In this document: positions 8,887-60,743 of the stretch, in pieces
Layout: each line of letters begins with the position of its first letter
Numbering within the stretch: the stretch's first letter is position 1
Assembly: GCA_947630555.1 (NCBI GenBank)
Contig: CANRIA010000002.1
Coordinates: forward strand, 112,482-176,481
Direction: 5' to 3'
From: an uncultured Clostridia bacterium
GTDB lineage: Bacteria > Bacillota > Clostridia > Oscillospirales > Ruminococcaceae
DNA length: 64,000 nucleotides
Position numbers and translations under genes: made by a program
Notes under the pieces: generated by a model
The model's database searches: none
The model's input: the letters and a program-made list of their open reading frames with translations, nothing else
What the model was told of the DNA's origin: nothing

Positions 8887-8888
8887 GC

Positions 8889-8917
8889 TTGACAAACAGA
8901 TTTGTTTGGGGTATAAT
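8889..8917 (+). promoter_or_regulatory. Consensus sigma-A promoter driving tRNA-Leu
   Basis: TTGACA (8889-8894), a 17-nt spacer, then TATAAT (8912-8917), 20 nt upstream of the tRNA 5' end. Confidence 0.7.
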
Positions 8918-8937
8918 AAATAATGTTGTTATAGTAT

Positions 8938-9024
8938 GCTGCTGTGGCGGAACAGGCAGACGCAAGGGACTTAAAATCCCTCGGTGGAAACATCGTGTGG
9001 GTTCGATTCCCATCAGCAGCACCA
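8938..9024 (+). tRNA. tRNA-Leu (anticodon UAA), type II with long variable arm, encoded CCA
   Basis: I folded it manually. The acceptor is GCTGCTG/CAGCAGC and the D arm is GCG..CGC. The anticodon stem AGGGA/TCCCT carries the loop CTTAAAA. The variable hairpin is CGGTGGAAACATCG. The T arm is GTGGG-TTCGATT-CCCAT, followed by ACCA. Confidence 0.9.
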
Positions 9025-9049
9025 GCAGCGTGACGCTGCACCCAATTTC

Positions 9050-9077
9050 GGGACACAGAGTGTTGTGTCCCGTTTTT
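9050..9077 (+). terminator. Rho-independent terminator after tRNA-Leu
   Basis: The 8-bp stem gggacaca/tgtgtccc has a 6-nt loop and is followed by GTTTTT. Confidence 0.7.
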
Positions 9078-9359
9078 GTTCCCGTGAATAAGCCTAGGCA
9101 TAACCCACACCATACTTTTTCGCGGACTACGTATCATTCGCGGCGACTTTTCTTTTATACTTGTGGAAAAGTCACCTCTCACTCACTCCTGTCGCTTACA
9201 CTTCGCAAGCGAAGTGCCGAAAAATCCTGTCGGACTTTTCCAGCTTTCCAAAACAAGTCACGCTTGCTTATCCTGTTCGCTTGTAAACGCGCTCACAACG
9301 GCTAAGCTGCGCTACCAACTCGTTTTGGCATAAATGTGATAGTCTAGGAAATTTTTGTT

Positions 9360-9394
9360 CTATTCACTATTCGTTATTCAATATTCACTATTCA
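9360..9394. repeat. Tandem heptad array, 5 x YTATTCR
   Basis: The units read ctattca|ctattcg|ttattca|atattca|ctattca. A 15-nt core (actattcgttattca) is identical to part of the array at 61665-61699. Confidence 0.8.
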
Positions 9395-9512
9395 CTAAGT
9401 ATTATCAGTCGCTTTTTATTTCAATGCTTAAAAGGTCTTTTACCACTCTGAAAACATAATCATAATTATTTCTATTCAACTGTTGATTTTGAAATGTAAA
9501 GTCTTATACACC

Positions 9513-10676: not shown

Positions 10677-10689
10677 AGTCTGCACCTCC

Positions 10690-11778
10690 TTAATTTGTCT
10701 GCGCAAGCGGTTTGGAGGTGAACCGTGACATACAAACTGCCATTATCATTATGCTGATCATGAGGTACGCGCCTGTTACCAGCAGATAATTTTTTGCAGT
10801 GTAACATACGTCTATGCCTCTGAAATACTTCTCTGCGATCGCTTTTAATACTTTGTCGTACAAGATATAGGATACGCATATGCTGAGGGCTGCGTGCAGT
10901 ATAACTTCTGCGGTGTATATCAAGCGGCAGTCGGAAGAAGTCGCGCCGCACAGCCTGAACACGCGCAGGGTGCTTTTGTTTGTCAGATAGATATAGTAAT
11001 AGCAGAAAGAGCAGTTGAACACAGCGAACAATATCATTATCACCGAAACTGCGATCTGCGTGCTGTTTAGCTGTTCGTCAAGCAGTTCAAGACCCTCGGG
11101 CATTTGTATCGAAGACGGCATTAAATACAGCTTTTGCATAAGCTTTTCGATTTCCTGCGCATCGTTATAAGAGGGCTTATTTTTCAGCGTTATAACAATA
11201 TCTCTTACCTTGCAGTCATCGGGAATGTTGTTCATATCGGGAAAAGTAAGATCAAAAGGTACGTCCTCTAAAAATGCGTTTACGGTATAGTCCGAGCCGC
11301 CGATATTTACACTGTCGCCTATCTTTACGCCCTCAAAGGCTTTGCTGCCGGGGTTTATATTTACTATCCTTTTGCCTGTTCCACTTTTGGTAAAATCGCC
11401 GCCGCCCGTTACAAAGCGAAGTTCTTTGCCGCCTGACTGCATGATAGCGAAAGAAGAAAAGCTAGCCGCCTCGTTATTGCAGTCGTCTTTGATAAAGGCA
11501 AGCAGTTCGTTGGTAGCATCAACAAATGTTTTGCCGTCTAAGCAGGTAGAAAACCTGTCCGCATCTGTGACGGCATTATTGTTTTCAAAGGAAACATATA
11601 TTTCTTTCTCGCTTTCCTCTGCGGCTTCAAAAACCGTGAATGCTCTGTATATAAGCCCGAAAACAAAGTATATGCATATAAGCGAAACTATCTGCATGAA
11701 TATGAGAAACACATACAGTGCAGGACGGCTTGTGACGGAGCGTTTTATGTAGGTAAACATAAGCGATGAGTCTGACAT
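10690..11778 (-). CDS. FtsX-like (MacB-type) ABC permease-family membrane protein, paralogue of the downstream gene
   Basis: ATG at 11778 follows AGGAG. The 1 + 3 TM topology is the same and the motif is LRVFRLCGATSSDCRLI. Confidence 0.7.
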   Translation of the reverse strand: MSDSSLMFTYIKRSVTSRPALYVFLIFMQIVSLICIYFVFGLIYRAFTVFEAAEESEKEIYVSFENNNAVTDADRFSTCLDGKTFVDATNELLAFIKDDCNNEAASFSSFAIMQSGGKELRFVTGGGDFTKSGTGKRIVNINPGSKAFEGVKIGDSVNIGGSDYTVNAFLEDVPFDLTFPDMNNIPDDCKVRDIVITLKNKPSYNDAQEIEKLMQKLYLMPSSIQMPEGLELLDEQLNSTQIAVSVIMILFAVFNCSFCYYYIYLTNKSTLRVFRLCGATSSDCRLIYTAEVILHAALSICVSYILYDKVLKAIAEKYFRGIDVCYTAKNYLLVTGAYLMISIMIMAVCMSRFTSKPLAQTN

Positions 11779-21094: not shown

Positions 21095-23509
21095 ATGATC
21101 AATAGTTTTAATGACAATGTTTTGGAATTACATAAAATTCTTGAAATGCTCAAAAACGAGTGTTCAAATGATGCATCGCGCGATATGGCGCTGAAAATAA
21201 GGCCAAACGCAAGCGTTTCAGATGTTAAAGAAGAAGTGCAAAAGACCGCCGATGCGCTGGAACTGACGGTCAAATTCGGCTCGCCCGTATTTTATAATAT
21301 TACAAATGCCGCCGCACTTGCTGACAGGGCATCTTCGGGCTCAATTCTAAGCCTTGCGGAGCTTATTGAAGTGCGCAAACTGCTTCACCAGATCTCTGCT
21401 CTTACAGAGTGGCACGACAGGTGCGGAAATGATGCAAAAAGTCTCGAATTTCTGTTTGAATGTATCTTTCCTAACAGCTATCTTGAAAGGCTGCTTGATT
21501 CTTCTATACTAAGCGAAGAAGAACTTGCCGATGATGCAAGCCCCGAACTTTCTTCTATACGCAGGAGAATTTCAAGGGCAGGCGTTAAGATAAGAGAAAA
21601 CCTGGAAAGCATGATAAAGTCATCTGAAACGAAGAAATATTTGCAGGAAGCAAGAGTAACGCTTCGTGACGGAAGATATGTTCTGCCAGTAAAATCTGAG
21701 CATAAAGGCGCGGTTAATGGTCTTGTTCATGATACTTCATCTACAGGCGCAACGCTGTTTATAGAGCCTATGTCGGTAGTAGAGGCTAACAACGAGATAC
21801 GCCTTTTAAAAGCGCAGGAGCAGGAAGAAATACACCGAATAATCACGCATTTATCGGCTTTGTGCGGCGAATTTGCTTTGCAGTTTGCATCAAGCTACAA
21901 AGCCTGCGTAACGCTCGATCTGTACTTTGCTAAAGCGCAGCTTGCCGCAAAAATGCACGCCTCTGTGCCTGAAATTTCAGATGACGGAATTATTGTGCTG
22001 AAAAAAGCCCGTCACCCACTTATTGATAAAAGCAGGGTAGTGCCTATTGATCTCACGATAGGGGAGAGCTACAATTCTTTGATAATAACAGGCCCTAACA
22101 CGGGCGGTAAGACTGTTATTCTTAAAACGGTGGGTCTGCTTACGCTGATGACGATGTGCGGTCTGCTGATACCTGTTTCAGACGGCTCAAAAATATCGGT
22201 CTTTCAAAATGTTCTGGCAGATATAGGCGATATGCAGTCTATTGAAGAAAGTCTTTCTACCTTTTCTTCGCATATGACAAGAGTTGTAGATATACTTAAA
22301 AAAGCGGACAGCGAAAGCCTTATTCTTCTTGATGAACTTGGCTCGGGCACCGACCCGATAGAGGGTGCGGCGCTTGCTGTTTCTATCATAGAAAAACTGA
22401 AAGAGTGCGGCGCAAAGATAATTTGCACAACGCACTATCAAGAACTGAAGCTATATGCCATTGACAGCGAGGATACAGAGAACGCCAGCTGCGAATTTGA
22501 CGTTGAAACGCTGAAACCGACGTACAGGCTTATTATAGGCTCTCCCGGTAAATCAAACGCTTTTGCTATTTCACGTCAGCTTGGTATGCCTGATGACATA
22601 ATAAATAATGCAGAAAGCATGATAGGCAGCGAAAACAGGCGTTTTGAAAACATTCTGGAAGGACTGGAGAAGTCGCGCTTGGAGCTTGAAAAACTGCGTG
22701 ACGAAGCAGACAAGAATCTTACCGAAAGCGAGAAGATAAAGGAATCTCTCGCCAAAGAAAAAGAGCTTTTAGAGCAGCACAAGGAAAAGGAACTGGAGAT
22801 TGCCAGACGTGAGGCAAATGCAATAGTTCGCCGCGTTACGCAGCAGTCTGAGAAGCTCATTGATGAACTTGACAGCCTGCGCAAGGAAAAGGATAAGGCT
22901 GATTTTGCGCAGAAAGCTATAGATGCAAAGCACGCAAGCAAGTCTGTTCTTAATAATATGTATAATGAATCCAACCCTGTGACAAAATCTGGCAGTGATT
23001 ATGTTTTGCCGCGACCGCTGGTAAAAGGTGACAGAGTTTTGATATCTGACATGAACAAGAACGGCATAGTTGTAACTCCGCCTGATGCAAGCGGAAACTG
23101 TTTTGTTCATTCGGGTGTTATGAAAACGAAGATACATGTCTCGAAACTCCGGCTTATTGAAAAAGAAGCTGCTCCTGTGCAAGGTAAGCAAAGTAAGCCG
23201 CAAAATAAGGCAAAGTCTTCGGGCAGAGTTACTTCAAGCGGCGTTGAAAGCAGAATGACACGCCGACCGCAAATGGAGCTTGATATACGCGGCTATACGG
23301 TAGATGAAGGTATCTATGAGGTTGATAGCTTTCTTGATGCTGCGGTGATGTCAGGCGCAAATTCGGTTACGATAATTCACGGCAAAGGCACAGGTGCTCT
23401 GAAAAACTCAGTGCGTGAACATCTCAGCTCGCATAGGCTTGTAAAGACATATCGCCGCGGCGTTTACGGCGAAGGTGAAGACGGAGTTACTATTGTGGAG
23501 CTTAAATAA
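21095..23509 (+). CDS. mutS2: Endonuclease MutS2 (MutS domain plus C-terminal Smr)
   Basis: Walker A is GPNTGGKT and the MutS motif is LLDELGSGTDP. A coiled-coil linker leads to the Smr domain (LDIRGYTVDE..IIHGKGTGALK). Confidence 0.93.
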   Translation: MINSFNDNVLELHKILEMLKNECSNDASRDMALKIRPNASVSDVKEEVQKTADALELTVKFGSPVFYNITNAAALADRASSGSILSLAELIEVRKLLHQISALTEWHDRCGNDAKSLEFLFECIFPNSYLERLLDSSILSEEELADDASPELSSIRRRISRAGVKIRENLESMIKSSETKKYLQEARVTLRDGRYVLPVKSEHKGAVNGLVHDTSSTGATLFIEPMSVVEANNEIRLLKAQEQEEIHRIITHLSALCGEFALQFASSYKACVTLDLYFAKAQLAAKMHASVPEISDDGIIVLKKARHPLIDKSRVVPIDLTIGESYNSLIITGPNTGGKTVILKTVGLLTLMTMCGLLIPVSDGSKISVFQNVLADIGDMQSIEESLSTFSSHMTRVVDILKKADSESLILLDELGSGTDPIEGAALAVSIIEKLKECGAKIICTTHYQELKLYAIDSEDTENASCEFDVETLKPTYRLIIGSPGKSNAFAISRQLGMPDDIINNAESMIGSENRRFENILEGLEKSRLELEKLRDEADKNLTESEKIKESLAKEKELLEQHKEKELEIARREANAIVRRVTQQSEKLIDELDSLRKEKDKADFAQKAIDAKHASKSVLNNMYNESNPVTKSGSDYVLPRPLVKGDRVLISDMNKNGIVVTPPDASGNCFVHSGVMKTKIHVSKLRLIEKEAAPVQGKQSKPQNKAKSSGRVTSSGVESRMTRRPQMELDIRGYTVDEGIYEVDSFLDAAVMSGANSVTIIHGKGTGALKNSVREHLSSHRLVKTYRRGVYGEGEDGVTIVELK

Positions 23510-35780: not shown

Positions 35781-36629
35781 TTATTTTGTGAAGAACAGCA
35801 CGCCCAGAGTGCCTTTACCACAGTGTGTGCACACCGTTGCGCCTGCCGAAGTTACAAGTACCTCTTTGAACGGCTGATACTTTTTGACTTCTTCAACTGC
35901 CATATCAACAAGCTTTTTATCCATAGGCGAATGTGTAACGAATATCCTGTCAAGCTGAACGTCCGTTCTGTCTTTCAGCTTAGATGCTATATACTGCGGA
36001 AGCACCTTGTCCAGATTTCCTCTGAATTTTTTGCCAACGCCCATTGCGCCGTCGTGTACTTCGATACAAGGTTTCAGATTTAAAAGGTTTGCGCCCAGCG
36101 CCGCCAGCGCCGAACATCTGCCGCCTTTACGAAGATTATCAAGCTTATTTATAACAAAGCTGACATCAAGGCGTTTTTTCATCTCGTCAAGCTTATCGGC
36201 AATTTCTTTGGCGGTCATCTCGCCGTCAAGAGCCATTTCTGCGGCTGCAACTGCCAGATGCCCCGAACCTGTAGATAAATTGTAACTGTCTACCGGGTAA
36301 ACATCGCCCAGTTCCTCAGCGGCAAGGCAGCAGTTTTGGTAGCATGAACTGAATTTGCTGCTTATATTGATATGAACTATCTTATATCCGCGCTCAATAT
36401 AGGGTCTGAACTTTTCGATATACTCAGACACCGTAACTGCCGAAGATTTTGGCAGTGCCGCCTTGTTTTCAGACATATCAAGCAGTTCTTTGCCGTTTAT
36501 ATCAACGGTATCGAGATACTCATTATCATCTATAAGCACATGGAGCGGCATAACGCCTATATCATACTTTTCGTACAAGCTTTGGCTAAGATCGCAGGTA
36601 GAATCGCAAAAAACCTTTACTCTTTCCAT
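35781..36629 (-). CDS. DegV-family fatty-acid-binding protein
   Basis: The N-terminus is VKVFCDSTCDL and the whole length shows the DegV pattern. Confidence 0.88.
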   Translation of the reverse strand: MERVKVFCDSTCDLSQSLYEKYDIGVMPLHVLIDDNEYLDTVDINGKELLDMSENKAALPKSSAVTVSEYIEKFRPYIERGYKIVHINISSKFSSCYQNCCLAAEELGDVYPVDSYNLSTGSGHLAVAAAEMALDGEMTAKEIADKLDEMKKRLDVSFVINKLDNLRKGGRCSALAALGANLLNLKPCIEVHDGAMGVGKKFRGNLDKVLPQYIASKLKDRTDVQLDRIFVTHSPMDKKLVDMAVEEVKKYQPFKEVLVTSAGATVCTHCGKGTLGVLFFTK

Positions 36630-36676: not shown

Positions 36677-36705
36677 ATTATACTACACTTTTTAAAATAA
36701 ATCAA
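36677..36705 (-). promoter_or_regulatory. Sigma-A-type promoter for degV
   Basis: On the minus strand: TTGATT (36705-36700), a 17-nt spacer, then TATAAT (36682-36677), just downstream of the giant ORF stop. Confidence 0.5.
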
Positions 36706-36715: not shown

Positions 36716-39700
36716 TTAAATTAGTGAAATTTTTCCGCTTTCAGGCGAAATGCTTATCTTTCCCCTGCTCTTGCAAAGAACTATGCCTTCGGTAATAGAG
36801 GTTTCCATGGTCGGCGTTGTTCTTGTATAGCCAAAGCACCTTGCAACTTCTCTTGTAAGGTCTGCACGGGTAAGGGTGAGCTGTTTTTCAAGAACATACA
36901 TAGCGGCGTTAGCTATCTCCTCGGCGCATATGTCATCTATCGGGCGCCTCTCGCCGTCTGCCATTCTGAAATAGTTCATATTTTCAGGTGTAACTTCACC
37001 ACTCCACACAAATGCAGAATTATTTGACTTTGTAATGGTGCAGTCAAGGCTGCCTAGAATATCTGTAAGGTATGCATCTGCTTTAGCGGTGCTTCTTGGT
37101 GCGCCGAAAGCCGCAAGAGTTTGTTTGAACAAAGTTTTCCTGCTAACAGGCGCTAGGGCATTTATAACGTCGCGCATGGTCTTTTTCAGCATAGGCGCAT
37201 ACCCGGGTGAATACAGGTCTGTCGGCGTACCTATAGCGGCAGGCGTGAACATCACAAATTTCTTTACCCTGTCGCTTGTTTCCTCAGTTTCGGTATCCTT
37301 CGCAAAGCTGTTTTCACTTACCGAAATGCTTGCCTTTTGTTCCTCCTGTTCAATATTGCCGTTCAGTGCATCATTTATTGCTGCAAGAATAGTTTTCATT
37401 ACCTTTTGCTTGTCATCAAACCAGTCAAGCGACCATATATGTATAAGATTCCAGCCCAGACCGCGCAGTACAGAAGGCAGCGAAAGATCGCGGTCATTTG
37501 CGGTTTTTGCAAGCTTACAGCTGTCACCGTCGCACATTATGCCTAAGATATATTCACTGCTGTTTCTCGGGTCTATAACGCCTATGTCTACTTTACATTC
37601 CGAGCAGCCTATGTTGCATCTTACCGCATAGCCTGCCTTTTCTATCTCAGCCGCAACAAGCTTTTCTATGCAGCGCTCAGACCTTTCCTCTGCTGCGCTG
37701 TGTACTGTAAGAGCGGCTCTGCCCTTTTGAGCAAATTCAAGAAAACCTTTAAGCCCCTCAACGCCCTCTGAAGATGTGCGCGACATATCTATCATATCAT
37801 AAGTAATAGTTGAAAATACCGTCATGCACTTTCTTGCGCGTGATATAGCAACGTTAAGCCTGCGCCAGCCGCCGTCTTTGTTGATAGGGCCGAAATTCAT
37901 TGAAACTTTGCCGTTTTTGTCAGGTCCATAACCTACCGAGAACAAAATAACATCTCTTTCATCACCCTGAACGTTTTCAAGGTTCTTTATAAACAGCGGC
38001 TCGTAAAGCTCGTCAGCAAGCTGTTCAAGTTCGGGTCTTTCGCGGAATTTGTCGCTGAGCATATCGTCAATAAGCGCCTGCTGAACAATGCTGAAAGTAA
38101 CAATGCCTATGCTCTCTTTTCTAAGCTCCTCGTCGTCAAGTCGGCGTTCTATCTCTTTAACAATAGCTTCCGCCTCGGCGCGGTTCTGCTTTGTGCCGCC
38201 CTTGTCGTAATAGCCGTCAACTTTAACCAAAGTTACCTTGCTTTCAAGGTCGTTGGGCGACGGGAAAGTATACAGCTTGTTATCGTAATAACGGGCGTTG
38301 CTGTATGCAATAAGGCTCTCATGCCTCGACCTGTAATGCCAAAACAGGTGTTCCTGCGGCATTGAGATCGCAAGACAGTCATCAAGAACGCTTTCAAGAT
38401 CTTCTTTTTCGTAGTTTTCTTCGTCAACATGGCTTACCGAGAAAAAGCTGGTAGGCGGCATCTGCTTGGGGTCGCCGACAACAACAACGCTGCTGCCCCT
38501 TGCTATCGCTCCGACAGCCTCGCTTGTAGGCAGCTGAGAAGCCTCATCAAATATAACAAGGTCAAATTTTGGGTATGACGGGTCTATATACTGCGCCACC
38601 GAGATAGGGCTCATCAGCATACACGGGCATATTCTGTGCAAAAGCGAGGGTATGCTGTCAAACAGCTTACGTATGGGCATCAGTCTGCCGGCCGATTTGA
38701 TTGCTTTCAGAAGTATGCCTATTTCAGAAGAACCTGCCATTTGACCGCCTGAGAACGGCACTTTTGCCGAAAGCTTGGCGACAAGTTCATTTATTGTAAG
38801 CATACGGAATTCATCAGTAACATCGGAAAATTTAGCGATAAGGTCTTCAAAACTTCTGCCGCTGAATGATGACAATACACTGCTGCCCTCTATCTCATAC
38901 ACTGCGGTAGAATAGCCCAAAGCGCACAGCAGGCTCTCGCACATGTCATCGGCTGTAACAGTGCCATTCTCAAGCGCTGTGCTCAGCTGCGGCAGACCTG
39001 CGCCTGTTACATCGTCCATAGCTCTTAAAAGCTGCGAACGCTCTTTTATTTTGTCAACATAAATCTGCCAGCTTGAATAACGCTTTTCGCACTCCGAGAG
39101 CCAGTTTTCGTTATCAGCCGCGGCGTTGTATTCGGTACAGAAAGCATCATATGTTTGCGTTAACGTATTAAACTGCTCAACATAATTTTGTGCAATTGCG
39201 CTGTTTTTAAGCGAAAGACAGCTTTCAACCGTGATACCGTTTTCTTTCATAATACTGTGGGCGGTAAGATTATCTTTTATAACACTTTCAGCCTGCTGCC
39301 ATTTGGTATTCTCACCGAGCCACACATTTTTAATAATGCTTGTGATAGTTGCATCTGCCGAGGTTATCGTTTTGTAGAGTTCCTCGCGGCGGCAAAGCTT
39401 ATCAATAAGCTCAGGGCAGTTTTCTTTGCTTATGCTGTCGGCATTTTTAGCGTGTAGTTTCAGTTGTTTTGCCGTTTTGCTCTGCCCTATCGCCTTTGCC
39501 AGAAACCAGCTCGAAGATGCTTTTTTCCATTCAAGCTTTAAATTTTGGGCGTTTATACTAAACACGCTGTTTTCAAATATCTGCGATAGCTCTTGCGCGG
39601 CGGTATCAAACTGCTTGCCGCTTTCTATAAGCGATAAGATATAGTCAGTCCTCTGCCCCTCTGCGCTGCCGTTTAATATATCATTTATATATATCGGGCA

Positions 39701-42463
39701 GCGGACGGATATTTCACAAAGGTCTGATAGGTCTTTGCATGTTTGCCTGCTGTTGCAGCCGCTTAAATTCAGCGCTTGGCATACAGCGTTCAGGCTTTCT
39801 TTAAAGCTGTTTACGACCTTTTCTCCGTTTGCAAGATCTGAAGAAAACTTATCGCGTAAAGTTACAGAATAATCGCGCCTGCCATAGCCTGACAACGGGT
39901 GATTATAAACCGTGCCAAACTCTTCTGCCGCACTTTTCAAAGCTGCCGCGGTGTCTTTCCATGCCTGCACCGTTTGCTCAGTCATGGCATCATACTGCTG
40001 CTTGGTTATTTCAAGCTTGCCGCTGTGCTCGGCATATGTTTCATACATAGTTACTGCATCATAAACCGAAAGACCGTTTTTGCGCTTTTTGTGAAGCTCG
40101 GTCATAACACTGTTAAGCTGAGTGCGTATCTCATAAAGTCTGTCGGCGGTCTGCTGATACTGCTCAGGCTGCTTTATTCTGCCGACTTCCATTGTTCTTT
40201 CAAGCTGAGAAAGCACTGCCCTTTTCTGCGCCTTGTTTGAATGAAGCTCCAGGCAAAATGCGCCCAGACCTATCTTTTCAAGCCTGCTTTGCACGACCGA
40301 CAGCGCAGCCATTTTCTTTGCAACAAAAAGTACGGTCTTATCGTGGTACAAAGCGTTTGCTATCATGTTTGTTATAGTTTGCGATTTGCCTGTTCCCGGA
40401 GGGCCGTGCAAAACAAAGCTTTGACCCCCGGCTGCGAGGCATATTGCCAAAAGCTGCGAAGAATCGGCGCTGCTGGGTACTGCAAGGTCAGAGGGCTTTA
40501 TGCGCTCATCAAGCGTTTCGGCGGTAATATCGCACTGCTCCGGCTGCCATTCAAGTTTGCCCGAAATAAGGCTTGCTACCACTTTGTTAGAGGCGATGTC
40601 GTCACTTCTGTTGCGCAGGTCGTTCCACATTATAAACTGGCTGAATGAGAAAAGCCCGATAAACGCATAGTTTACAACGTCCCAGCGTTTTTTGTCTATA
40701 ACGGCATGTCGCACGGTATTGAACACCATTTGAAGGTCAACGCCGCTTTCATCTGCCGGCAGAGGGTCAAGTCCTGTTATATCTATACCGAAATCCTGCC
40801 GTAAAAGCTCCAGCAGGGTAACGTTCATCTGTGTTTCTTCATCGCGTATCTTTATTTTATAGGTCTTGCTCTGAACGTTTCTTATAATGTCAATAGGAAC
40901 AAGAACAAGCGGCGCAAAACGCTCTTTTTCGCTTTTATCCGTTTCATACCAGCGCAGAAAACCAAGTGCAAGATAAAGAGTGTTGCTGCCGTTTTCAAGA
41001 AGGCTGTTCTTTGAGGCGTTGTAAAGAGCCTTGCAGTTTTTTTCAAGCTCGCTCTCACTTACAAAAGAGCGTATACGCTGATTTTTAAATTCAGACTCGG
41101 AAATAGTGGTGATAAGGTCTTTATCGTTTTCGGTATCGAAAATCGCGCTGTCTTTTACGGTGCTTGCCCAGTCGCTAGGCTGAGGCATTATTGTAAAAGC
41201 CTTTCCCGATGCGAGATTGTCCTCTAAAGCGGCAAGGTCGGCGATCATAAGCTGCACAGAGTTTTTCTTTGCACGGAAGTTTAGCAGAGAATTTCGTAGA
41301 CTGAGATCAAGCAGTTTTCTTTCCCACATCTGCTGCTTTGTAAGCGGCGCGGCATTTTCTGAAGGAGCTATCCTGCCGTCGTTTACAAGCTGCTGAGGGG
41401 CGTTAGTATTCTGTGTGGTTTTCTCTGCTGAAGCAGTATTTTCGGCAAGCTGATATATACCGTTACTGAGTACACGCTGTGGTATAGGACGTATACCGCC
41501 GCCGCGGCTGCGCTTAACATCAATGGCAAGTTCAAATTTTGCTGTATATGAAAGTGCTGACAGAGCATCTTTTTCTGCCTGCTCAAAGGTAACGCTTCTG
41601 CCTGACACCACATCTGTACATTCTATAAGAGCAATTTCATTTATACCCTCGGCACAGCGTTTTGTTATTGCGGAAACGTCGTCAACGGCACATTCTGAGA
41701 AGGTCTGTTCATTCAGCCACAGACCCACAAAAGCGTGACTTTGTAGAATAACTATTATCGGGTGTATAGAAACAGCTTCAAGGCAGCTTGCAAAAAGCAG
41801 AGTTAGATCAAGGCAGGTAGCAAGTTTGTTCTGCACAATATCGGAGCAAAGACGCACCCTCTGACCTGTTGCCTCAAAGCTGGCAGGCGGAACGCAGTAG
41901 GTTATCTGCATATCCTGCAAAGCGGAATATATAGCAGCCGCCTGATTGCGCACATGGTTCGGGTTTTGCGTAAGGTATCCGGTGAACGACGGGTCGCCGG
42001 TCCACTTTTTAAGGTACTCCCCTGCCGCAGAAATTATACCGCTTATTGCAGGATAGTTAGGCGTTACAAAAGCGCTGATTATTTCGGGAATATAGTTTGT
42101 GCCGTTCCACTCGTCAAATGCCAGAAGTTCAACGTCAACGGAATCTTCGGCTTCTGTAATATCGCCGTTTAAGACAGAAATATTAAGCCTAGCGTTAAGT
42201 TTTTCTGTAAGAGAATATAAAAATTCAGCCTTTGCCTTGAAAGGTACAGGGCGCACTTCATATGAACTGTGCGCGGCTATTGCAGGCAGCGGCAGTGTAA
42301 AATTATCTGCATAATCGGGCTCAGCAGAAACGGTAAGAACAAGTCCGCTGACGGCTTCATCACCGTTGTTTGAGACCACTATGCTGTATATGCAGGGAAC
42401 ATAATTTTGCTGCATGGCAAAGTTTACAAATCTGCATACCTCTGATCTTATAGAAATATCCAT
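36716..42463 (-). CDS. 1915-aa multidomain protein: transglutaminase-like N-domain, DUF4011-like region, Upf1/DNA2-type SF1 helicase (split by a long helical insert), Vsr/DUF559-like endonuclease fold, DUF3320-like tail
   Basis: It is an uninterrupted ORF. The RBS GAGGTG lies 21 nt after the dnaE stop. Motifs, by amino-acid position:
- ATC217LDL / SH243AF / ECTD284
- RKLLDLSLRNSLLNF (382-396)
- GPPGTGKS (687-694)
- DEASQ (1306-1310)
- QGDERD (1499-1504)
- VAISRAR (1538-1544)
- VDIGV..IMCDG..DRD..GWNLIHIWSLDWF (1625-1682). Confidence 0.85.
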   Translation of the reverse strand: MDISIRSEVCRFVNFAMQQNYVPCIYSIVVSNNGDEAVSGLVLTVSAEPDYADNFTLPLPAIAAHSSYEVRPVPFKAKAEFLYSLTEKLNARLNISVLNGDITEAEDSVDVELLAFDEWNGTNYIPEIISAFVTPNYPAISGIISAAGEYLKKWTGDPSFTGYLTQNPNHVRNQAAAIYSALQDMQITYCVPPASFEATGQRVRLCSDIVQNKLATCLDLTLLFASCLEAVSIHPIIVILQSHAFVGLWLNEQTFSECAVDDVSAITKRCAEGINEIALIECTDVVSGRSVTFEQAEKDALSALSYTAKFELAIDVKRSRGGGIRPIPQRVLSNGIYQLAENTASAEKTTQNTNAPQQLVNDGRIAPSENAAPLTKQQMWERKLLDLSLRNSLLNFRAKKNSVQLMIADLAALEDNLASGKAFTIMPQPSDWASTVKDSAIFDTENDKDLITTISESEFKNQRIRSFVSESELEKNCKALYNASKNSLLENGSNTLYLALGFLRWYETDKSEKERFAPLVLVPIDIIRNVQSKTYKIKIRDEETQMNVTLLELLRQDFGIDITGLDPLPADESGVDLQMVFNTVRHAVIDKKRWDVVNYAFIGLFSFSQFIMWNDLRNRSDDIASNKVVASLISGKLEWQPEQCDITAETLDERIKPSDLAVPSSADSSQLLAICLAAGGQSFVLHGPPGTGKSQTITNMIANALYHDKTVLFVAKKMAALSVVQSRLEKIGLGAFCLELHSNKAQKRAVLSQLERTMEVGRIKQPEQYQQTADRLYEIRTQLNSVMTELHKKRKNGLSVYDAVTMYETYAEHSGKLEITKQQYDAMTEQTVQAWKDTAAALKSAAEEFGTVYNHPLSGYGRRDYSVTLRDKFSSDLANGEKVVNSFKESLNAVCQALNLSGCNSRQTCKDLSDLCEISVRCPIYINDILNGSAEGQRTDYILSLIESGKQFDTAAQELSQIFENSVFSINAQNLKLEWKKASSSWFLAKAIGQSKTAKQLKLHAKNADSISKENCPELIDKLCRREELYKTITSADATITSIIKNVWLGENTKWQQAESVIKDNLTAHSIMKENGITVESCLSLKNSAIAQNYVEQFNTLTQTYDAFCTEYNAAADNENWLSECEKRYSSWQIYVDKIKERSQLLRAMDDVTGAGLPQLSTALENGTVTADDMCESLLCALGYSTAVYEIEGSSVLSSFSGRSFEDLIAKFSDVTDEFRMLTINELVAKLSAKVPFSGGQMAGSSEIGILLKAIKSAGRLMPIRKLFDSIPSLLHRICPCMLMSPISVAQYIDPSYPKFDLVIFDEASQLPTSEAVGAIARGSSVVVVGDPKQMPPTSFFSVSHVDEENYEKEDLESVLDDCLAISMPQEHLFWHYRSRHESLIAYSNARYYDNKLYTFPSPNDLESKVTLVKVDGYYDKGGTKQNRAEAEAIVKEIERRLDDEELRKESIGIVTFSIVQQALIDDMLSDKFRERPELEQLADELYEPLFIKNLENVQGDERDVILFSVGYGPDKNGKVSMNFGPINKDGGWRRLNVAISRARKCMTVFSTITYDMIDMSRTSSEGVEGLKGFLEFAQKGRAALTVHSAAEERSERCIEKLVAAEIEKAGYAVRCNIGCSECKVDIGVIDPRNSSEYILGIMCDGDSCKLAKTANDRDLSLPSVLRGLGWNLIHIWSLDWFDDKQKVMKTILAAINDALNGNIEQEEQKASISVSENSFAKDTETEETSDRVKKFVMFTPAAIGTPTDLYSPGYAPMLKKTMRDVINALAPVSRKTLFKQTLAAFGAPRSTAKADAYLTDILGSLDCTITKSNNSAFVWSGEVTPENMNYFRMADGERRPIDDICAEEIANAAMYVLEKQLTLTRADLTREVARCFGYTRTTPTMETSITEGIVLCKSRGKISISPESGKISLI

Positions 42464-42484
42464 TCAAAACACCTCACTGTGTTA

Positions 42485-45400
42485 TTATGACTTTATAGAA
42501 AATGCAACGTTGCTTTCACCAAAAATGTCTTGCAGCTGCGAAAGAGTATCTATATCCGCTTTTATGGTCGGGCAGCTTTTCAGCCTGACGATTTTGCCTG
42601 CATCGCTTATCTTTATAAACAGCGGCGTGCTGCCCTGCGCAGTATTGCATAGCACTTTAAGTTTGTTGATTTTGTTTTCATCGCTTGTCGGCATATTTAT
42701 ATATAGCGGAAATTTTTGCAGCGAATCGGCATACTGCTGTGCAGGAATTACCGAATTTGCAACTATTTTTGCAGGCTCGTCCTCTTTTGTAGATACCCTG
42801 CCGCTTACAAACACAGGTTCTCTGCTTTCAAGATACTGCCTTGCCTGCGCGAAAACGGACGGGAATACTATTATCTCTATTTCACCGCTCATATCTTCAC
42901 AGGTGGTAAACGCCATTATTTCGTCTTTTTTGGTACGGTGCTGCTTTATGCTGTTTGTTATCACCATTACGTTTACTTTTGCGCCGTCTTCATAGCCGTT
43001 TTCGTTATCTTCCGAAGTATCGGCTATTTCGGCTAGCTGGTCAAGCCTTGCCGTCCTGCTTACGCTGACATACTTTTCAAGTGGGTGCCCCGAAAGATAA
43101 ACACTTAGCGAATTTTTCTCCATTTCAAGTATCTCTTCGGGCGAATAATCGGGCTCATCTGGAAAATCGTCTTTTTCTGTATCAAGCGGCGTATCTTCCG
43201 TTATATCAAAAAGGTCAAGCTGTCCGTCCGCCTCTTTTTTAGATTTTGCGTTTAGCTCTTTTATAATAAACTCAAAATTGTGTATCTGCTGTTTGCGGTT
43301 GCAGCCTCCTGTGCTGCTAAAAGCGCCGCTGCGTATAAGCGCTTCTACAGCCCTTGCATTTATAAAATGTATCATTCTGCTGCAAAAATCGGTAAGAGAT
43401 CTGAAGCTGCCGTTTTTGCATCGTTCGTCAATTATGCAGTCTATTATCCCCTCGCCAAGATTTTTTATTGCAAGCAGCCCAAAGCGTATTTTGCCGTTTT
43501 CTGTAGAAAAGCCTTTTTCGCTCTTATTTATATCAACGCCGAGTATCTCAACGCCGTTTTTTCTGCTGTTGCTGCAATATACCGAAAGCTTAGAACCGCC
43601 CTCGCCTACTACCGAGGTCATCAGAGCCGCCATATAATCGGCATAATAGTGGCATTTAAGATATGCTGTCTGAAAAGCTATGGTAGAATACGCCGCCGCG
43701 TGTGACTTATTGAAAGCATACGAAGCAAACGAAGTCATATCGTCAAAAAGCTGATTTGCAGTTTTTTCGTCGACACCGTTTGCAATGCAGCCCACGCAGT
43801 TTATACTGCCGTCGGCATTTTTTTCGCCGTATATAAAAGCGTGCCTTTCAGCTTCAAGAACAGCAGATTTTTTCTTTGCCATTGCGCGCCTTACTATATC
43901 TGCCCTGCCATAAGAATACCCTGCAAGTGCTCTGAATATCTGCATTACCTGCTCCTGATAGATTATACAGCCGTAGGTGCCCTCTAAGATAGGCTTCAAA
44001 AGTGGGTGCTTGTACTTTATTTTAGAAGGGTCGCGGCTGTTTTCTATATATATCGGTATGCTGTCAACAGGCCCGGGGCGATAAAGAGATATTGCCGCAA
44101 TAAGGTCATCAATTCTTTTTGGTGCCATTCTTACAAGTGTTGATGTCATTCCTGCGCTCTCAAACTGAAAAACTCCCTCAGTATCACCGCGCGACAGCAT
44201 ATTGAAAACTTCTTTGTCATCAAGCGGTATTTTGTTTATGTCAAAATACGGTTCTCTTTTCTGAATTTCTCTTTCACAGTTGCGTATAACAGTTAAGTTG
44301 CGAAGACCCAGAAAGTCAAATTTAAGCAGACCCATGCTCTCAAGTATGCCTGCGGTGTACTGCGTTGAAATTTGCCCGTTCCTGCTGAAAAGCGGAGAAT
44401 AGGTATCTACAGGCTCTTTTGTAATTACCACACCTGCCGCATGAGTGCCGACACTGCGCGGCATACCCTCAATATTCATAGCTGTGTCGATAAGGTCTTT
44501 TACGCGCTTGTCCTCGTTATACATACTTCTGAGTTCCGAAGAAGTATTCAGCGCTTTTTTAAGGGTAACATCAATGCTGCGCGGTATTCTTTTTGCAATA
44601 TCGTCCGCCAGCTGATAAGGCATATCCATAGCCCTTGCGGCATCACGCACCGCGCCCCTTGCCGCCATTGTGTTGAATGTGGCGATCTGCGTTACATATT
44701 CACTGCCGTATTTTTGCTTTACATAGTCTATAACGCGCTGTCTGCCGTCAATGCAAAAGTCAATGTCAAAGTCGGGCATTGAAACTCTTTCAGGATTAAG
44801 AAATCTTTCAAACAGCAGGTCGTATCTCAAAGGGTCTATGCCAGTTATGCCTATGCAGTAAGCGCACAGGCTGCCTGCACCGCTGCCGCGCCCAACACCC
44901 ACGGGAATATCATTTCGCTTGGCGTAGTTTGTAAAATCCCAGACTATCAGAAAGTAATCAATATAGCCCATTTTTTCTATAACAGACATTTCATATTCCA
45001 TGCGCTGACGGGCGGCAGCATTGTTTTCGCCGTACTTTTCTTTTAGTCCTTTTTCACAAAGCTTACGAAAAAACGCTTTGTTATCGTCAACGCCTTTCAT
45101 AGTGAACCTAGGCAGCTTGATCTTGCCAAATTCAAACTCAATGCTGCACATATCGGCTATTTTTGTGGTGTTTTCAACTGCCTGCGGATATGCCGAGAAC
45201 AGCTCGCTCATTTCGTCGCCGCTTTTAATATAAAACTCATCGGTCGGAAATTCCATGGAGCTTGGTTCGCTGAGCGTTGATTTTGTAGCAATGCACACAA
45301 GCACTTTTTGCATATTAGCATCTGTTTTGCTGATGTAGTGAGCATCGTTGGTTGCAACAAGAGGTATGCCTGTCTCGCGCGAGAGCCTTGCAAGCAGCGG

Positions 45401-45961
45401 CAGTATTCTTTTTTGCTCTTCAATGCCGTGGTCTTGAATTTCTATATAGTAATTTTCCTGACCAAATATTTCGTTATATTCAAGCGCGGCTTTTTTAGCT
45501 TCATCAAAATTGCCGTTATTTAAAAGGCGCGGTATCTGACCTGCAAGGCAGGCAGAAAGGCAGATAAGCCCCTCGCTGTACTTTCTAAGACATTCAATAT
45601 CTACTCGCGGACGAGAATAAAAGCCCTCTATATAGCCTATAGAAACGAGTTTTATAAGATTTTTGTACCCCTGCATATTTTTACACAGCAAAACAAGGTG
45701 ATAGGGCGAGCGTTCAAAACGCTTGTCCTTTTCAAAGCGAGATCTTTCAGCAACGTATACTTCGCAGCCGATAATAGGCTTTATACCCTGCTTTTTACAT
45801 TCATTATAGAACTCTATCGCGCCGTACATATTGCCGTGGTCGGTTATAGCAAGCGCCTTTTGCCCTATAGATGCCGCGAATTTTGGCAGCTGTGATATTT
45901 TGCACGCGCCGTCAAGCAGGCTGTATTCGGTATGCACATGCAGATGCACAAAATCTTTCAT
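42485..45961 (-). CDS. dnaE: DNA polymerase III alpha subunit (DnaE type, N-terminal PHP domain)
   Basis: The PHP motif is FVHLHVHTEYSLLDG, the polymerase core is ..PDFDIDF.., and there is a C-terminal OB fold. Confidence 0.93.
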   Translation of the reverse strand: MKDFVHLHVHTEYSLLDGACKISQLPKFAASIGQKALAITDHGNMYGAIEFYNECKKQGIKPIIGCEVYVAERSRFEKDKRFERSPYHLVLLCKNMQGYKNLIKLVSIGYIEGFYSRPRVDIECLRKYSEGLICLSACLAGQIPRLLNNGNFDEAKKAALEYNEIFGQENYYIEIQDHGIEEQKRILPLLARLSRETGIPLVATNDAHYISKTDANMQKVLVCIATKSTLSEPSSMEFPTDEFYIKSGDEMSELFSAYPQAVENTTKIADMCSIEFEFGKIKLPRFTMKGVDDNKAFFRKLCEKGLKEKYGENNAAARQRMEYEMSVIEKMGYIDYFLIVWDFTNYAKRNDIPVGVGRGSGAGSLCAYCIGITGIDPLRYDLLFERFLNPERVSMPDFDIDFCIDGRQRVIDYVKQKYGSEYVTQIATFNTMAARGAVRDAARAMDMPYQLADDIAKRIPRSIDVTLKKALNTSSELRSMYNEDKRVKDLIDTAMNIEGMPRSVGTHAAGVVITKEPVDTYSPLFSRNGQISTQYTAGILESMGLLKFDFLGLRNLTVIRNCEREIQKREPYFDINKIPLDDKEVFNMLSRGDTEGVFQFESAGMTSTLVRMAPKRIDDLIAAISLYRPGPVDSIPIYIENSRDPSKIKYKHPLLKPILEGTYGCIIYQEQVMQIFRALAGYSYGRADIVRRAMAKKKSAVLEAERHAFIYGEKNADGSINCVGCIANGVDEKTANQLFDDMTSFASYAFNKSHAAAYSTIAFQTAYLKCHYYADYMAALMTSVVGEGGSKLSVYCSNSRKNGVEILGVDINKSEKGFSTENGKIRFGLLAIKNLGEGIIDCIIDERCKNGSFRSLTDFCSRMIHFINARAVEALIRSGAFSSTGGCNRKQQIHNFEFIIKELNAKSKKEADGQLDLFDITEDTPLDTEKDDFPDEPDYSPEEILEMEKNSLSVYLSGHPLEKYVSVSRTARLDQLAEIADTSEDNENGYEDGAKVNVMVITNSIKQHRTKKDEIMAFTTCEDMSGEIEIIVFPSVFAQARQYLESREPVFVSGRVSTKEDEPAKIVANSVIPAQQYADSLQKFPLYINMPTSDENKINKLKVLCNTAQGSTPLFIKISDAGKIVRLKSCPTIKADIDTLSQLQDIFGESNVAFSIKS

Positions 45962-57793: not shown

Positions 57794-58522
57794 TTATACA
57801 TCTGAGCTTTTGTCTTTGCCGCCGAGCGGAGTAATTGCAATAGTGCAGCATATAACATTTTGCGCACCTGCCAGTTTAAGAGCCTTAGCGCAGTAGCTTA
57901 AAGTACTGCCGGTAGTTAGTATATCATCACACAAAAGCACTGTTTTGCCGCGGACAAAATCTTCATTACCTATAAATCTGAATGCCTTTGCGGCGCGCTG
58001 TTTTCGCTCTTCGGCAGAAAGATCATGTTGAACCAGCGTTTGGTCTGTCTTTATAAGCAGCTTGCCGTTTACAGGAATACCTGTATGCCGATGTATCATC
58101 TTTGCATAAATATGCGCGTGGTTATAGCCTGTTTCACGCATTTTGCGCTTTGTAACTGGCACAGAAGTTATAATGTCTATTTTCCCTGCAAGCTCATTAT
58201 CTTTGAGATATTCTGCCGCCTTTATTGCAAAATATTCCGCAAAGCCTGTGCCGTGGCGCTCTTTCAGCGCAAGCACGCCGCTTTTGCCTGCATCTTTATA
58301 AAATATAAATGAAAAGCATCTGTCATAATAAAGCTTTTCTCTTTCGCAAATACACTTTATCTGTCCGCAGTGTGGGCAAAAATTTTCGCCGATAAATTCA
58401 AGCTGCTTCTCGCAATCGCGGCAAATAAGTTCATCATAACCTATATCTTTGTCGCACACAGGGCATTTGTTGGGAAAGAAAATATCCAGCAAAAACGCCT
58501 CAACTTTATATATCCACTTCAT
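57794..58522 (-). CDS. comFC: ComF-family protein (ComFC; zinc-finger plus phosphoribosyltransferase domain)
   Basis: The N-terminus has CPVC..C..C..CPHC and the PRT motif is VLLCDDILTTGST. Confidence 0.85.
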   Translation of the reverse strand: MKWIYKVEAFLLDIFFPNKCPVCDKDIGYDELICRDCEKQLEFIGENFCPHCGQIKCICEREKLYYDRCFSFIFYKDAGKSGVLALKERHGTGFAEYFAIKAAEYLKDNELAGKIDIITSVPVTKRKMRETGYNHAHIYAKMIHRHTGIPVNGKLLIKTDQTLVQHDLSAEERKQRAAKAFRFIGNEDFVRGKTVLLCDDILTTGSTLSYCAKALKLAGAQNVICCTIAITPLGGKDKSSDV

Positions 58523-60743
58523 CGCCGTTATCCTCTGCCAGCATTTCTTTAAGGCAGGTGTATCTGTTTGTTTTATGGTTGTGCTGTATCATATAGTTTA
58601 TAACAGCGGCAGAGCCCACAATAATGAACATCTTTCTTGCTCTTGTAACGGCTGTATACAGCAAATTGCGGTAAAGAAGCTTTTCATTGCACTCATCGGC
58701 GGCATATATCACATAGTCAAACTCGCTGCCTTGACTTTTATGTACCGTTACGGCATATGCAAGCTCAATATTTTCCATCATTGTTATAGTATACAAACAT
58801 TCTCTGCCGTCAAAATCAATAGTAACAAGACCTGTAGAGCGGTTTATATCAAGAATAGTGCCTATATCGCCGTTGTATATTTCAGCGCCATGTTCAACGC
58901 CTTTTTCGGTTTCTCTGCGCCATACTATGTCATAATTATTGCGGTTCTGCATCACCTTGTCGCCAACGCGGAAGGTATTCATAAAGGTTTTTATCTCTGC
59001 TTTATCGCTTGCAGGGGGATTTAATTGCTCCTGAAGAACGTGGTTTAGTTCTGTAGTACCGCTCATACCTATACGCGTGGGCGACAAGACCTGAATATGC
59101 TCGGTAGGTATTATTCCGTACTCGGCAGGAAGCCTGTCCTTGCAAAGGCTTACAATAAGTTCTGCCACTCCCCTGCCGCTTCTTGAAAAGAAAAAGAAGT
59201 CGTCGCAGTCGCCTCTGATTATCTGCTCACCTTTTATTATTCTGTGTGCATTTGTAACTATGCGGCTGCACTGCGCTTGTCTGAACACCTCATGCAACTG
59301 CACAACGGGCACTTTTCCGCTTTCTATAATATCTTTCAAAACGTTGCCTGCGCCTACCGAAGGCAGCTGGTCGCTGTCGCCGACAAGTATAAGTTTGCAG
59401 GTAAGCGGCAGTGCACGCAAAAGGGCATCAAATAACAGCGAATCTACCATAGACATCTCATCTACCACGCACACATCACAACCGAGCAAATTTTCTTCAT
59501 TATGTGTAAAATGCGGCACATCGCCGTCGGCATACTTAACTTCAAGCAGGCGGTGTATGGTTTTGGCATCATGTCCTGTAAGCTCGGTAAGACGTTTTGC
59601 GGCTCTGCCGGTGGGGGCTGTTACCATAACGTTAAGCCCCTGCTGCTCAAACAAAGAAATTATTGCATTCAAAGTGGTGGTCTTGCCAGTGCCGGGGCCG
59701 CCGGTAAGGACTAAAAATCCTGTGGAAAGGGCATTGTTTATCGCCTCTCGCTGTATTTCCTCATAGGTAATGCCGTTTTGCTCCTGCGCAATATCTATAA
59801 CATCGCTGAAATCTTCTTTACTGTCATATGCAAGCTGACTCATGATGTTGAGGCGGCGAGAAATGTTGACGTCTGCTTTTGCAAAGTCAAGCAGCATTTC
59901 ATATGTTCTGCCGCTTTTTTTGGTATACCTGATAACTACTTTGTCATCGTGCAGCATTTGAAGTATCTCGTCAAACTTATCTTCTGTCACAGCCAGAAAA
60001 TTGCAGCTGAGCTGACAAAGTTTATCTGTAGGCAGGCAGGTGTGCCCCTCTGTTGAATTTTTAAGAAGAACGGTCATTATACCTGCACGCACGCGTTCCT
60101 CGCAGTCGTTTGCAAGATTTTGCCGCTGACCTATTTCATCAGCTTTGCCAAACGGCAGACCTACCTCAAAAGAGCACATACAGTAAGGGTTGCTCTCTAT
60201 CATTTCAAGGACGCAGGTGCCCCACGCTTTATATGCGCGTATGGCGTATGCTGCGGCTATGCCGTTTGACGAAAGATACGACATCAGCCGTTTTACCGCA
60301 AACTTATCGGCAAATTCTTCGGCATACTTTTTAGCCTTTCTGGGTGAAATGCCGTCTATCTTGGTAAGCTGCATGGGGTCGTTTTCAAAAACTTCAAAAA
60401 CTCTTTCGCCGAACATATCTACTATCTTTTTTGCAAGCACAGGGCCTATGCCTTTGATAACACCGCCTGCAAGATACTTTCGTATATCGGTAATTTTGGC
60501 AGGCAGGGCGCGCTCGCAAAGGTGGGCTTTGAACTGCTCGCCATACTTGCGGTGTGTGGTATACTCTCCGACCAAGTCAAGAACTTCGCCCTCGTCAACG
60601 TCGCCTATCTCGCCAACGACTGTAACAGGTTTTCCGTCTGCGTTGAGCATTATAACGGCAAAACCTGTTTCCTCGCTGATATGTACTACACTGTCTACCG
60701 TGCCTTTAAGCGTGGTATATTTTTTTGTGTTCATATTCTTCAT
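58506..60743 (-). CDS. recD2: RecD2-type SF1B DNA helicase
   Basis: It has an N-terminal OB/HhH region. Walker A is GGPGTGKTT, motif II is VVDEMSMVD, and the C-terminus has AVTVHKSQGSEF and the SH3-like segment. Confidence 0.9.
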   Translation of the reverse strand: MKNMNTKKYTTLKGTVDSVVHISEETGFAVIMLNADGKPVTVVGEIGDVDEGEVLDLVGEYTTHRKYGEQFKAHLCERALPAKITDIRKYLAGGVIKGIGPVLAKKIVDMFGERVFEVFENDPMQLTKIDGISPRKAKKYAEEFADKFAVKRLMSYLSSNGIAAAYAIRAYKAWGTCVLEMIESNPYCMCSFEVGLPFGKADEIGQRQNLANDCEERVRAGIMTVLLKNSTEGHTCLPTDKLCQLSCNFLAVTEDKFDEILQMLHDDKVVIRYTKKSGRTYEMLLDFAKADVNISRRLNIMSQLAYDSKEDFSDVIDIAQEQNGITYEEIQREAINNALSTGFLVLTGGPGTGKTTTLNAIISLFEQQGLNVMVTAPTGRAAKRLTELTGHDAKTIHRLLEVKYADGDVPHFTHNEENLLGCDVCVVDEMSMVDSLLFDALLRALPLTCKLILVGDSDQLPSVGAGNVLKDIIESGKVPVVQLHEVFRQAQCSRIVTNAHRIIKGEQIIRGDCDDFFFFSRSGRGVAELIVSLCKDRLPAEYGIIPTEHIQVLSPTRIGMSGTTELNHVLQEQLNPPASDKAEIKTFMNTFRVGDKVMQNRNNYDIVWRRETEKGVEHGAEIYNGDIGTILDINRSTGLVTIDFDGRECLYTITMMENIELAYAVTVHKSQGSEFDYVIYAADECNEKLLYRNLLYTAVTRARKMFIIVGSAAVINYMIQHNHKTNRYTCLKEMLAEDNGDEVDI

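Follow-up and report, generated by a model that had tools for sequence, protein, structure and literature searches.

What is a single open reading frame (ORF) of 1,915 codons doing between the replicative polymerase gene dnaE and degV in an uncultured Clostridia bacterium of the Ruminococcaceae, and does it encode an immune protein or a part of the housekeeping machinery around it? The window that we analysed is a stretch of 64,000 nucleotides (positions 112,482 to 176,481 of contig CANRIA010000002.1, assembly GCA_947630555.1), to which all coordinates below refer. Judging from profile matches and domain order, we put the probability at roughly two in three that the gene encodes a typical ProA protein of full length, in the HEPN-less form of this family of stand-alone anti-phage helicase–nucleases. 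The protein scores 2110.7 bits against the NCBIfam equivalog NF058533.1 ('anti-phage protein ProA'; cutoff, 1500) and aligns with it end to end (residues 14–1881 on profile positions 1–1903 of 1903), the N-terminal domain included. It also matches the PADLOC hidden Markov model (HMM) PDC-S37 (E=0, 1236 bits, residues 378–1904 on profile positions 11–1539 of 1550); ProA and this PADLOC candidate are the same family.

The 120 best database homologues (47–93% identity, 1913–2073 aa) have the same domain order, that is, a beta-sandwich, a transglutaminase-like domain, DUF4011, a superfamily 1B (SF1B) helicase, a Vsr-like MTES_1575 domain and tandem winged helices. Query coverage is 99–100% in 119 of them and 89% in the remaining one (P0027). 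Between the ProA profile and the window protein there is no architectural difference: length (1903 profile positions and 1915 aa) and domain order are the same, and both stand alone. What sets the window copy apart is a few lineage-specific substitutions and a fixed housekeeping locus beside dnaE in place of a defence island. The initial annotation had called the protein uncharacterised and the best candidate for a novel system in the window. Neither description survives, as a curated equivalog is passed over its full length and PDC-S37 at E=0, and nothing about the gene is new as a system: current NCBIfam or PADLOC annotation would label it, and the architecture of this named and catalogued family has been in the literature since 2013. 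The broader placement of the protein among single-gene, defence-type helicase–nucleases related to Hhe was correct.

The gene and its start signal are as follows.

36716..42463 (-): complete ORF of the proA-family gene, stop codon included, 1915 aa (NCBIfam and PADLOC matches)
42470..42475 (-): Shine–Dalgarno sequence GAGGTG, 6 nt 5' of the proA ATG, inside the 21-nt gap behind the dnaE stop

The frame begins with ATG, is uninterrupted and is the longest among the window ORFs of at least 200 aa, so that the long intact reading frame with its own ribosome-binding site noted earlier is confirmed by ORF analysis. Compared with an orthologue of 93% identity, the reference for all such ratios here, the gene has a ratio of non-synonymous to synonymous substitution rates (dN/dS) of 0.062, and its domains each have a ratio of 0.02–0.11, which places it far beyond chance. 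Every ProA domain of the window copy is under purifying selection. All motifs listed in the initial annotation were found at the residues given, among them RKLLDLSLRNSLLNF at residues 382–396. At nearly invariant columns of the family the window copy deviates by Q1662L, H137Y, E489L and L1335M, the last of these in helicase motif III.

Read from the N terminus, the parts of the protein are these.

42125..42463 (-): N-terminal beta-sandwich, aa 1–113 (all-beta in the AlphaFold2 model, predicted local distance difference test score (pLDDT) 85–96; Foldseek matches to Ig-like sandwiches)
41504..42088 (-): transglutaminase-like (papain-fold) core, aa 126–320 (invariant triad, Pfam matches of homologues, Foldseek)
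41813–41815, 41735–41737 and 41678–41680 (-): codons of Cys217, His243 and Asp262
40802..41317 (-): DUF4011, aa 383–554 (Pfam, E=4.7e-47)
39947..40465 (-): first half of SF1B RecA1, aa 667–839 (Pfam AAA_11, E=2.5e-17)
40382–40405 (-): Walker A motif GPPGTGKS, aa 687–694
38744..39946 (-): poorly conserved insertion of ~400 aa in RecA1 between motifs Ia and II, aa 840–1240 (column conservation 0.32–0.54)
37811..38572 (-): helicase motifs II–VI, aa 1298–1551 (Pfam AAA_11/AAA_12, conservation 0.9)
37376..37666 (-): Vsr-like MTES_1575 nuclease-fold domain, aa 1600–1696 (Pfam, E=4.1e-24; alpha/beta fold in the AlphaFold2 model)
36719..37225 (-): C-terminal tandem winged-helix module, aa 1747–1915, the first winged helix being DUF3320 (AlphaFold2 pLDDT ~90)

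Pfam, homologues and folds thus uphold the earlier domain calls (DUF4011, an SF1B Upf1-like helicase, a Vsr-like MTES_1575 domain, a DUF3320 tail and a transglutaminase-like N-domain), and the HMM support that had been asked of Pfam for DUF4011, AAA_11/AAA_12 and MTES_1575 is present.

The Pfam scan of the window protein gave no HEPN match, and residues 1–113 are modelled as all-beta, not as HEPN. In the AlphaFold2 model of the N-terminal region (pLDDT 79.8) this beta-sandwich is followed by an alpha/beta core. Foldseek returned Ig-like sandwiches and the animal transglutaminases FXIII, TG2, TG3 and protein 4.2; the FXIII, TG2 and TG3 fold matches are partial (~115 columns, low TM of ~0.2). 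The modelling that had been proposed as a check on the N-domain therefore supports a transglutaminase-like core, through partial matches only. The window copy itself has no Transglut_core match at E≤1; 13 of 19 homologues match that Pfam family (best E=1.3e-5), and 12 match the transglutaminase-like DUF553. Cys217, His243 and Asp262 are invariant in the alignment of these regions (19 sequences, residues 1–375), and dN/dS across the domain is 0.062.

With residues 1–660, which span the N-domain and DUF4011, as query, an exhaustive HMMER search gave E≤1e-30 for at least 1617 cluster representatives. Proteins of 1900–2000 aa that begin with the N-module make up most of these; a minority of 2100–2420 aa have an extra N-terminal extension of ~200 aa. 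Three of the longer forms (P0164, P0177 and P0256) pass the ProA cutoff (1671–1979 bits) and fail that of Hhe. In P0177, the only longer form in which the extension was identified, it is DUF4145, which we take to be a family of the HEPN clan. Because these extension-bearing proteins score as ProA, the NCBIfam model appears to cover HEPN-bearing and HEPN-less forms alike. The transglutaminase-like domain had been regarded as an extra that made the protein atypical; it is instead the norm, being conserved in all 120 best homologues, with at least 1617 representatives matching the stretch that includes it, and it was described in 2013 (PMC3710099).

The motifs of the helicase motor are intact. 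The SF1B Upf1-like motifs I, Ia, II, III, V and VI are all preserved and ~90% conserved in the family (DEASQ at 1306, GDPKQMPP at 1330, HYRSRHESLI at 1376, VQGDERD at 1498 and RRLNVAISRAR at 1534), and Pfam AAA_12 covers residues 1372–1551 (E=2.3e-15). Within the protein, constraint is strongest in the DUF4011 region (residues 381–640; dN/dS 0.018), and the highest ratio, 0.11, belongs to residues 801–1240. When the whole protein was searched against PDB sequences, the best relatives were IGHMBP2 and Sen1, both weak, with no close solved relative.

At the other end of the protein, the nuclease fold is recognizable and its active site departs from the textbook form. The pattern KVDIGVID...LGW...DWF spans residues 1624–1682. 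In the family alignment of 121 sequences, D1626 and D1657 are invariant, R1658 occurs in 118 (and is invariant in A2), and conservation extends to the LGW...DW strand. Where a glutamate is expected in DUF559 or PD-(D/E)xK enzymes, the family has M, L or N; the next D-G is only partly conserved, and no conserved His or Lys is evident in the Vsr-like site of the 121 sequences. We assume, from the Vsr structure, which of these positions correspond to the catalytic residues of Vsr. Codon 1662 of the window copy (37478–37480) encodes L, compared with Q in 119 of the 121; the leucine is confined to the window copy and its 93% relative. As M, L or N is found at the glutamate position across the family, the 'altered motif' that had been thought to make this protein atypical is a family trait. 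The domain has a dN/dS of 0.054.

The winged helices that follow are confident in the model of residues 1565–1915 (pLDDT 77.6), which shows a small alpha/beta domain and then two winged-helix units. Pfam DUF3320 barely passes (residues 1749–1794, E=1.2e-5, 25.6 bits for a cutoff of 25). Foldseek matches of the C-terminal region include the cullin WHB domain, UFL1, JetB/MukE, the tandem winged-helix domain of Rpc5, DndG and Rok. A PDB profile search with the C-terminal family profile gave, among the non-spurious matches, only non-significant ones to RAP domains. The Vsr-like profile met RAP-domain proteins of the Toxoplasma mitoribosome (9g6k and 9i05) at a non-significant E of ~0.3; the two line up at the D...DG...LGW...W pattern, and Foldseek places 9i05_Xi at rank 48.

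We propose, by analogy with the logic of PMC3710099 and with other helicase–nuclease defences, that the ProA protein acts alone and needs no DNA modification. Recognition of foreign or aberrant replicating DNA would fall to the winged helices, and probably to DUF4011 too, without a modification mark, as in the modification-independent model of DNA recognition put forward for this architecture (PMC3710099). The SF1B motor would then move along a single strand, driven by ATP, and the Vsr-like domain would nick or cut the DNA. The transglutaminase-like domain may form a second, protein-directed module, either a sensor or an effector. Our literature search found no published mechanism for the ProA family.

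Two other ways of working must be weighed against this one. The target could be RNA or an RNA–DNA hybrid, as for Upf1, Sen1 and Mokosh, given that IGHMBP2 and Sen1 are the nearest helicases of known structure and the only solved relatives by sequence; the motor would then unwind or translocate on phage transcripts or R-loops, with the Vsr-like domain as a RAP-like module that binds or cleaves RNA. Partial matches to MkoA and MkoC and the non-canonical nuclease motif fit such a target, as does the RAP profile match, although this is not statistically significant (E ~0.3) and is accompanied by a sole RAP fold match at rank 48. However, tandem winged helices and the Vsr fold are typical DNA-binding modules, the putative triggers of Hhe are phage genes of DNA metabolism, and Pfam finds no PLD or HEPN RNase in the window copy. 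We consider an RNA target unlikely.

The second alternative gives the domains other roles. The invariance of the Cys-His-Asp triad under purifying selection, beside a Vsr-like site without a conserved E, K or H, could point to an abortive-infection protein, in which sensing of infection would be the only task of the helicase and winged helices, a transglutaminase-like protease or cross-linker would be the effector and act on host or phage proteins, and the Vsr-like domain would be catalytically dead. Anantharaman et al. proposed that the cleavage of proteins adds a further line of defence (PMC3710099), and expression of a phage gene is toxic in Hhe cells (PMC11482910). Yet the invariant D1626, the R1658 shared by 118 of 121 sequences and the constraint on the nuclease domain point to retained function there, no substrate is known for the transglutaminase-like domain, and copies on Acinetobacter plasmids have lost the tail while keeping the nuclease. 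An abortive mode of this kind seems highly doubtful to us, and we retain the model set out first.

Comparison with known systems leads to the same family. Anantharaman, Makarova, Burroughs, Koonin and Aravind described in 2013 an architecture that joins HEPN, a transglutaminase-like peptidase, an SF-I helicase, a Vsr restriction endonuclease and two winged helices (PMC3710099), in which the winged helices overlap DUF3320 and MTES_1575 is the prototype. The window protein shares with these giant proteins the order of transglutaminase, DUF4011, SF1 helicase, Vsr-like domain and winged helices with DUF3320, and has no associated modification gene. It differs in lacking their N-terminal HEPN of ~200 aa and begins at the beta-sandwich.

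Hhe (Gao et al. 2020) has the single-gene form and the core of DUF4011, SF1B helicase and Vsr-like domain in common with the window protein, which differs from Hhe by its transglutaminase-like N-domain, its tail of tandem winged helices and its lack of HEPN. Membership of Hhe was rejected: the NCBIfam model NF042953.1 gives 816.9 bits against a cutoff of 2000 (best stretch, residues 1061–1735), and the PADLOC Hhe model gives 568 bits (best stretch, residues 1145–1698). A knockout screen pointed to phage DNA-metabolism genes as triggers of Hhe and left its mechanism open (PMC11482910). Mokosh (MkoA/MkoB and MkoC; Millman et al. 2022) shares the COG1112/Upf1-like SF1 motifs, with no similarity outside the helicase core. 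It too was rejected, as the MkoA and MkoC matches reach ~90 bits in that core only (best in RecA2, residues 1299–1553), with no PLD domain fused or adjacent. With full-length matches to NF058533.1 and PDC-S37, and partial ones only to Hhe and Mokosh, the protein is best taken as a member of the ProA family and as neither of the other two.

Hachiman is a two-protein complex, unlike the single-protein ProA, and its helicase belongs to superfamily 2. Both Nhi and Hachiman HamAB follow the same logic, the coupling of a nuclease effector to a helicase that surveys nucleic acids (PMC12278908 for Hachiman). A PADLOC scan of the window protein matched no Nhi or Ham model, and thus indicates no sequence-family relation.

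How does the family behave elsewhere? ProA has thousands of full-length relatives, which occur in different phyla and are also met on plasmids and in defence islands. At 50% identity or below, the neighbours vary from locus to locus (L003, L004, L006 and L090): histidine and MurT genes in one, an HTH/ORF6N/HicA region in another, a VWA/asparaginase region in a third. One homologue belongs to a defence island that also holds NERD, McrBC, RNase_T-BRCT and a DUF2726 helicase, and others have housekeeping neighbours. No neighbour accompanies ProA consistently across these four loci and the clade of the window; ProA is a stand-alone gene. Near-full-length copies occur on 35 plasmid records from Bacteroidota and Pseudomonadota, with hosts that include Bacteroides, Paraburkholderia, Sinorhizobium, Rhizobium, Paracoccus, Pseudomonas aeruginosa and Acinetobacter, and many of the plasmids with any ProA match are conjugative or mobilizable. 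The family as a whole behaves like a mobile, stand-alone defence gene.

Among phages the family is scarce. A scan of IMG/VR viral contigs found no ProA relatives, and GenBank phages yielded one full-length homologue only (MT836269.1, 'Bacteriophage sp.', 5358–11300, 40% identity). That record, from human faeces, is 11.4 kb long and unannotated, the ProA gene fills half of it, and it may be mis-binned bacterial DNA.

Several plasmid copies deserve a separate description. On the Acinetobacter baumannii plasmid pOXA58_005078 (L092; 4612–9768), the neighbours are genes for a large site-specific integrase, a WYL-domain protein and a ThiF-family protein. Acinetobacter plasmid copies align to residues 4–1698 only, without the winged-helix/DUF3320 tail; among the 25 records listed, 12 (H10–H21), all of them Acinetobacter plasmids, show the match at these same query coordinates, and 42 Acinetobacter records match overall. 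A full-length copy of 41% identity on 'plasmid 29' of Bacteroides finegoldii (L093; 5908–11865) lies between rpsA and a reverse-transcriptase-family gene. This record of 45.8 kb is typed as a non-mobilizable plasmid, holds genes of chromosomal type (rpsA, glutamine synthetase), and may be a chromosome fragment.

In the window the gene sits in a very different setting, of which the immediate features are these.

42485..45961 (-): dnaE (DNA polymerase III alpha), directly upstream of proA with a 21-nt gap (Pfam)
35781..36629 (-): degV, directly downstream of proA (Pfam)
36677–36705 (-): promoter-like TTGATT-17-TATAAT, just past the proA stop and ahead of degV

The gene order is murB-rapZ-whiA-dnaE-[proA]-degV-atpIBEFHAGDC. 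Scanning of the 21-nt gap between dnaE and proA revealed no promoter-like or terminator-like site, and the terminator scan found nothing convincing at either end of proA, with no terminator-like hairpin after it. On this arrangement, proA is probably on the same transcript as dnaE. The GC content of proA (0.43–0.49, compared with 0.41–0.45 in the flanks) is unremarkable and so gives no sign of recent transfer.

Related genomes show how stable this placement is. ProA homologues at 93, 69, 63 and 56% identity occupy the same dnaE-linked position. In two sister lineages (L001, 6077–9966; L089, 3658–7983), sbcD-sbcC lies between dnaE and proA and ends 17–34 nt before the proA start; the slot of L089 also holds an ABM-domain gene, and degV is missing in both. 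With sbcDC present and degV missing in these lineages, the interval between dnaE and atp is a small variable slot of which ProA is the constant occupant. To sample loci without reference to ProA, we retrieved exact matches to the ATP synthase c subunit (identical AtpE); the 23 contigs obtained represent 9 distinct places. All nine carry dnaE-ProA(1915/1916 aa)-degV-atp, in lineages whose ProA is 96, 93 and 69% identical. Divergence of ProA keeps step with that of DnaE, WhiA and MurB, and its dN/dS (0.062) is close to those of DnaE (0.074) and WhiA (0.073), with a synonymous rate (dS) equal to that of the flanks. The nine loci, the parallel divergence and the DnaE-like dN/dS establish that, in this Oscillospirales clade, proA is fixed between dnaE and degV/atp and vertically inherited.

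Outside the clade the linkage of dnaE and proA disappears. Neither 80 dnaE loci from GTDB (~35 of them, from Oscillospirales and allied Clostridia, keeping whiA-dnaE) nor 80 metagenomic loci from JGI (21 keeping whiA) have ProA, degV or atp in the up to 10 kb of downstream sequence covered; the best DnaE in these dnaE-anchored scans is only 55–59% identical, so they speak for other families and not for loss within the clade. The initial annotation had proposed that patchy distribution would mark an accessory or defence gene and a conserved dnaE-linked position a core one. Within the clade the gene is not patchy, being fixed at dnaE under DnaE-like selection as a core gene would be; this does not hold at the level of family and order, where the linkage is absent.

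Several of these results count against the proposed reading of the window protein as an anti-phage helicase–nuclease. The window is wholly housekeeping in content (SpoIIE, glycogen genes, MutS2, RecD2 and mur genes), and proA evolves like DnaE. The substrates of IGHMBP2 and Sen1 include RNA and R-loops in addition to DNA. The M, L or N at the glutamate position, the lack of an evident His or Lys and the Q1662L substitution leave DNA cleavage only putative. A literature search found no paper describing the ProA family or PDC-S37, the primary ProA paper included, and no experiment on the window protein or on any ProA; with no ProA paper found, the anti-phage label goes back to the NCBIfam name and the PADLOC listing, and the anti-phage activity of the window protein is a putative one, assigned by family name only.

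The clade protein might accordingly be a domesticated helicase–nuclease of genome maintenance, which would be expressed with DnaE, and in the sister lineages with SbcCD, would process aberrant DNA structures of the host in replication or repair and would not be an immune gene. Consistent with this are the 21-nt gap behind dnaE without a promoter-like or terminator-like site, the sbcD-sbcC pair directly upstream in L001 and L089 (gaps of 17–34 nt), the presence of proA in all nine AtpE-sampled loci and in each of the five genomes sampled through ProA (lowest identity, 56%), and a divergence and dN/dS that match DnaE, WhiA and MurB in a gene without compositional anomaly. In P. aeruginosa, too, a DUF4011 gene is among the core genes (PMC10250203). 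On the other hand, the family carries an anti-phage name and a PADLOC listing, its homologues reside on conjugative plasmids and in defence islands, and the other Oscillospirales and metagenomic dnaE loci scanned, ~56 of which keep whiA-dnaE (35 and 21), are without a copy in the up to 10 kb of downstream sequence covered. True defence genes also show long vertical retention. Domestication in this sense is improbable in our judgement. Quite improbable, too, is a course in which a ProA-type immune gene was captured into a replication and repair neighbourhood, co-transcribed with dnaE and adjoined by sbcDC in the sister lineages, and now acts on host intermediates; if it were true, a defence gene would have been domesticated for genome maintenance.

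We therefore keep the assignment to the ProA family of anti-phage proteins, with one unusual trait of the window gene: its fixed position beside the replicative polymerase gene in this lineage. The lineage offers a natural case of a fixed, vertically inherited and probably dnaE-co-transcribed gene of defence type. It bears on whether large single-protein defence helicase–nucleases can persist like core genes or gain housekeeping roles. For mutagenesis, clear targets are the Cys-His-Asp triad, which is invariant, and the Vsr-like site, which is non-canonical.

The window contains two further genes for DNA-processing proteins, both of an ordinary housekeeping kind; they encode a 745-aa SF1B helicase of RecD2/YrrC type (58506–60743, -) and an 804-aa MutS2 with an Smr domain (21095–23509, +). 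A few kilobases past the atp operon, beyond the atp and OAD genes, the sister loci L175–L177 and L180 carry a tyrosine-recombinase (Phage_integrase) gene at ~19.2–20.3 kb. The genes between OAD_beta and YfbR differ among strains, forming a small variable spot that is unrelated to ProA.

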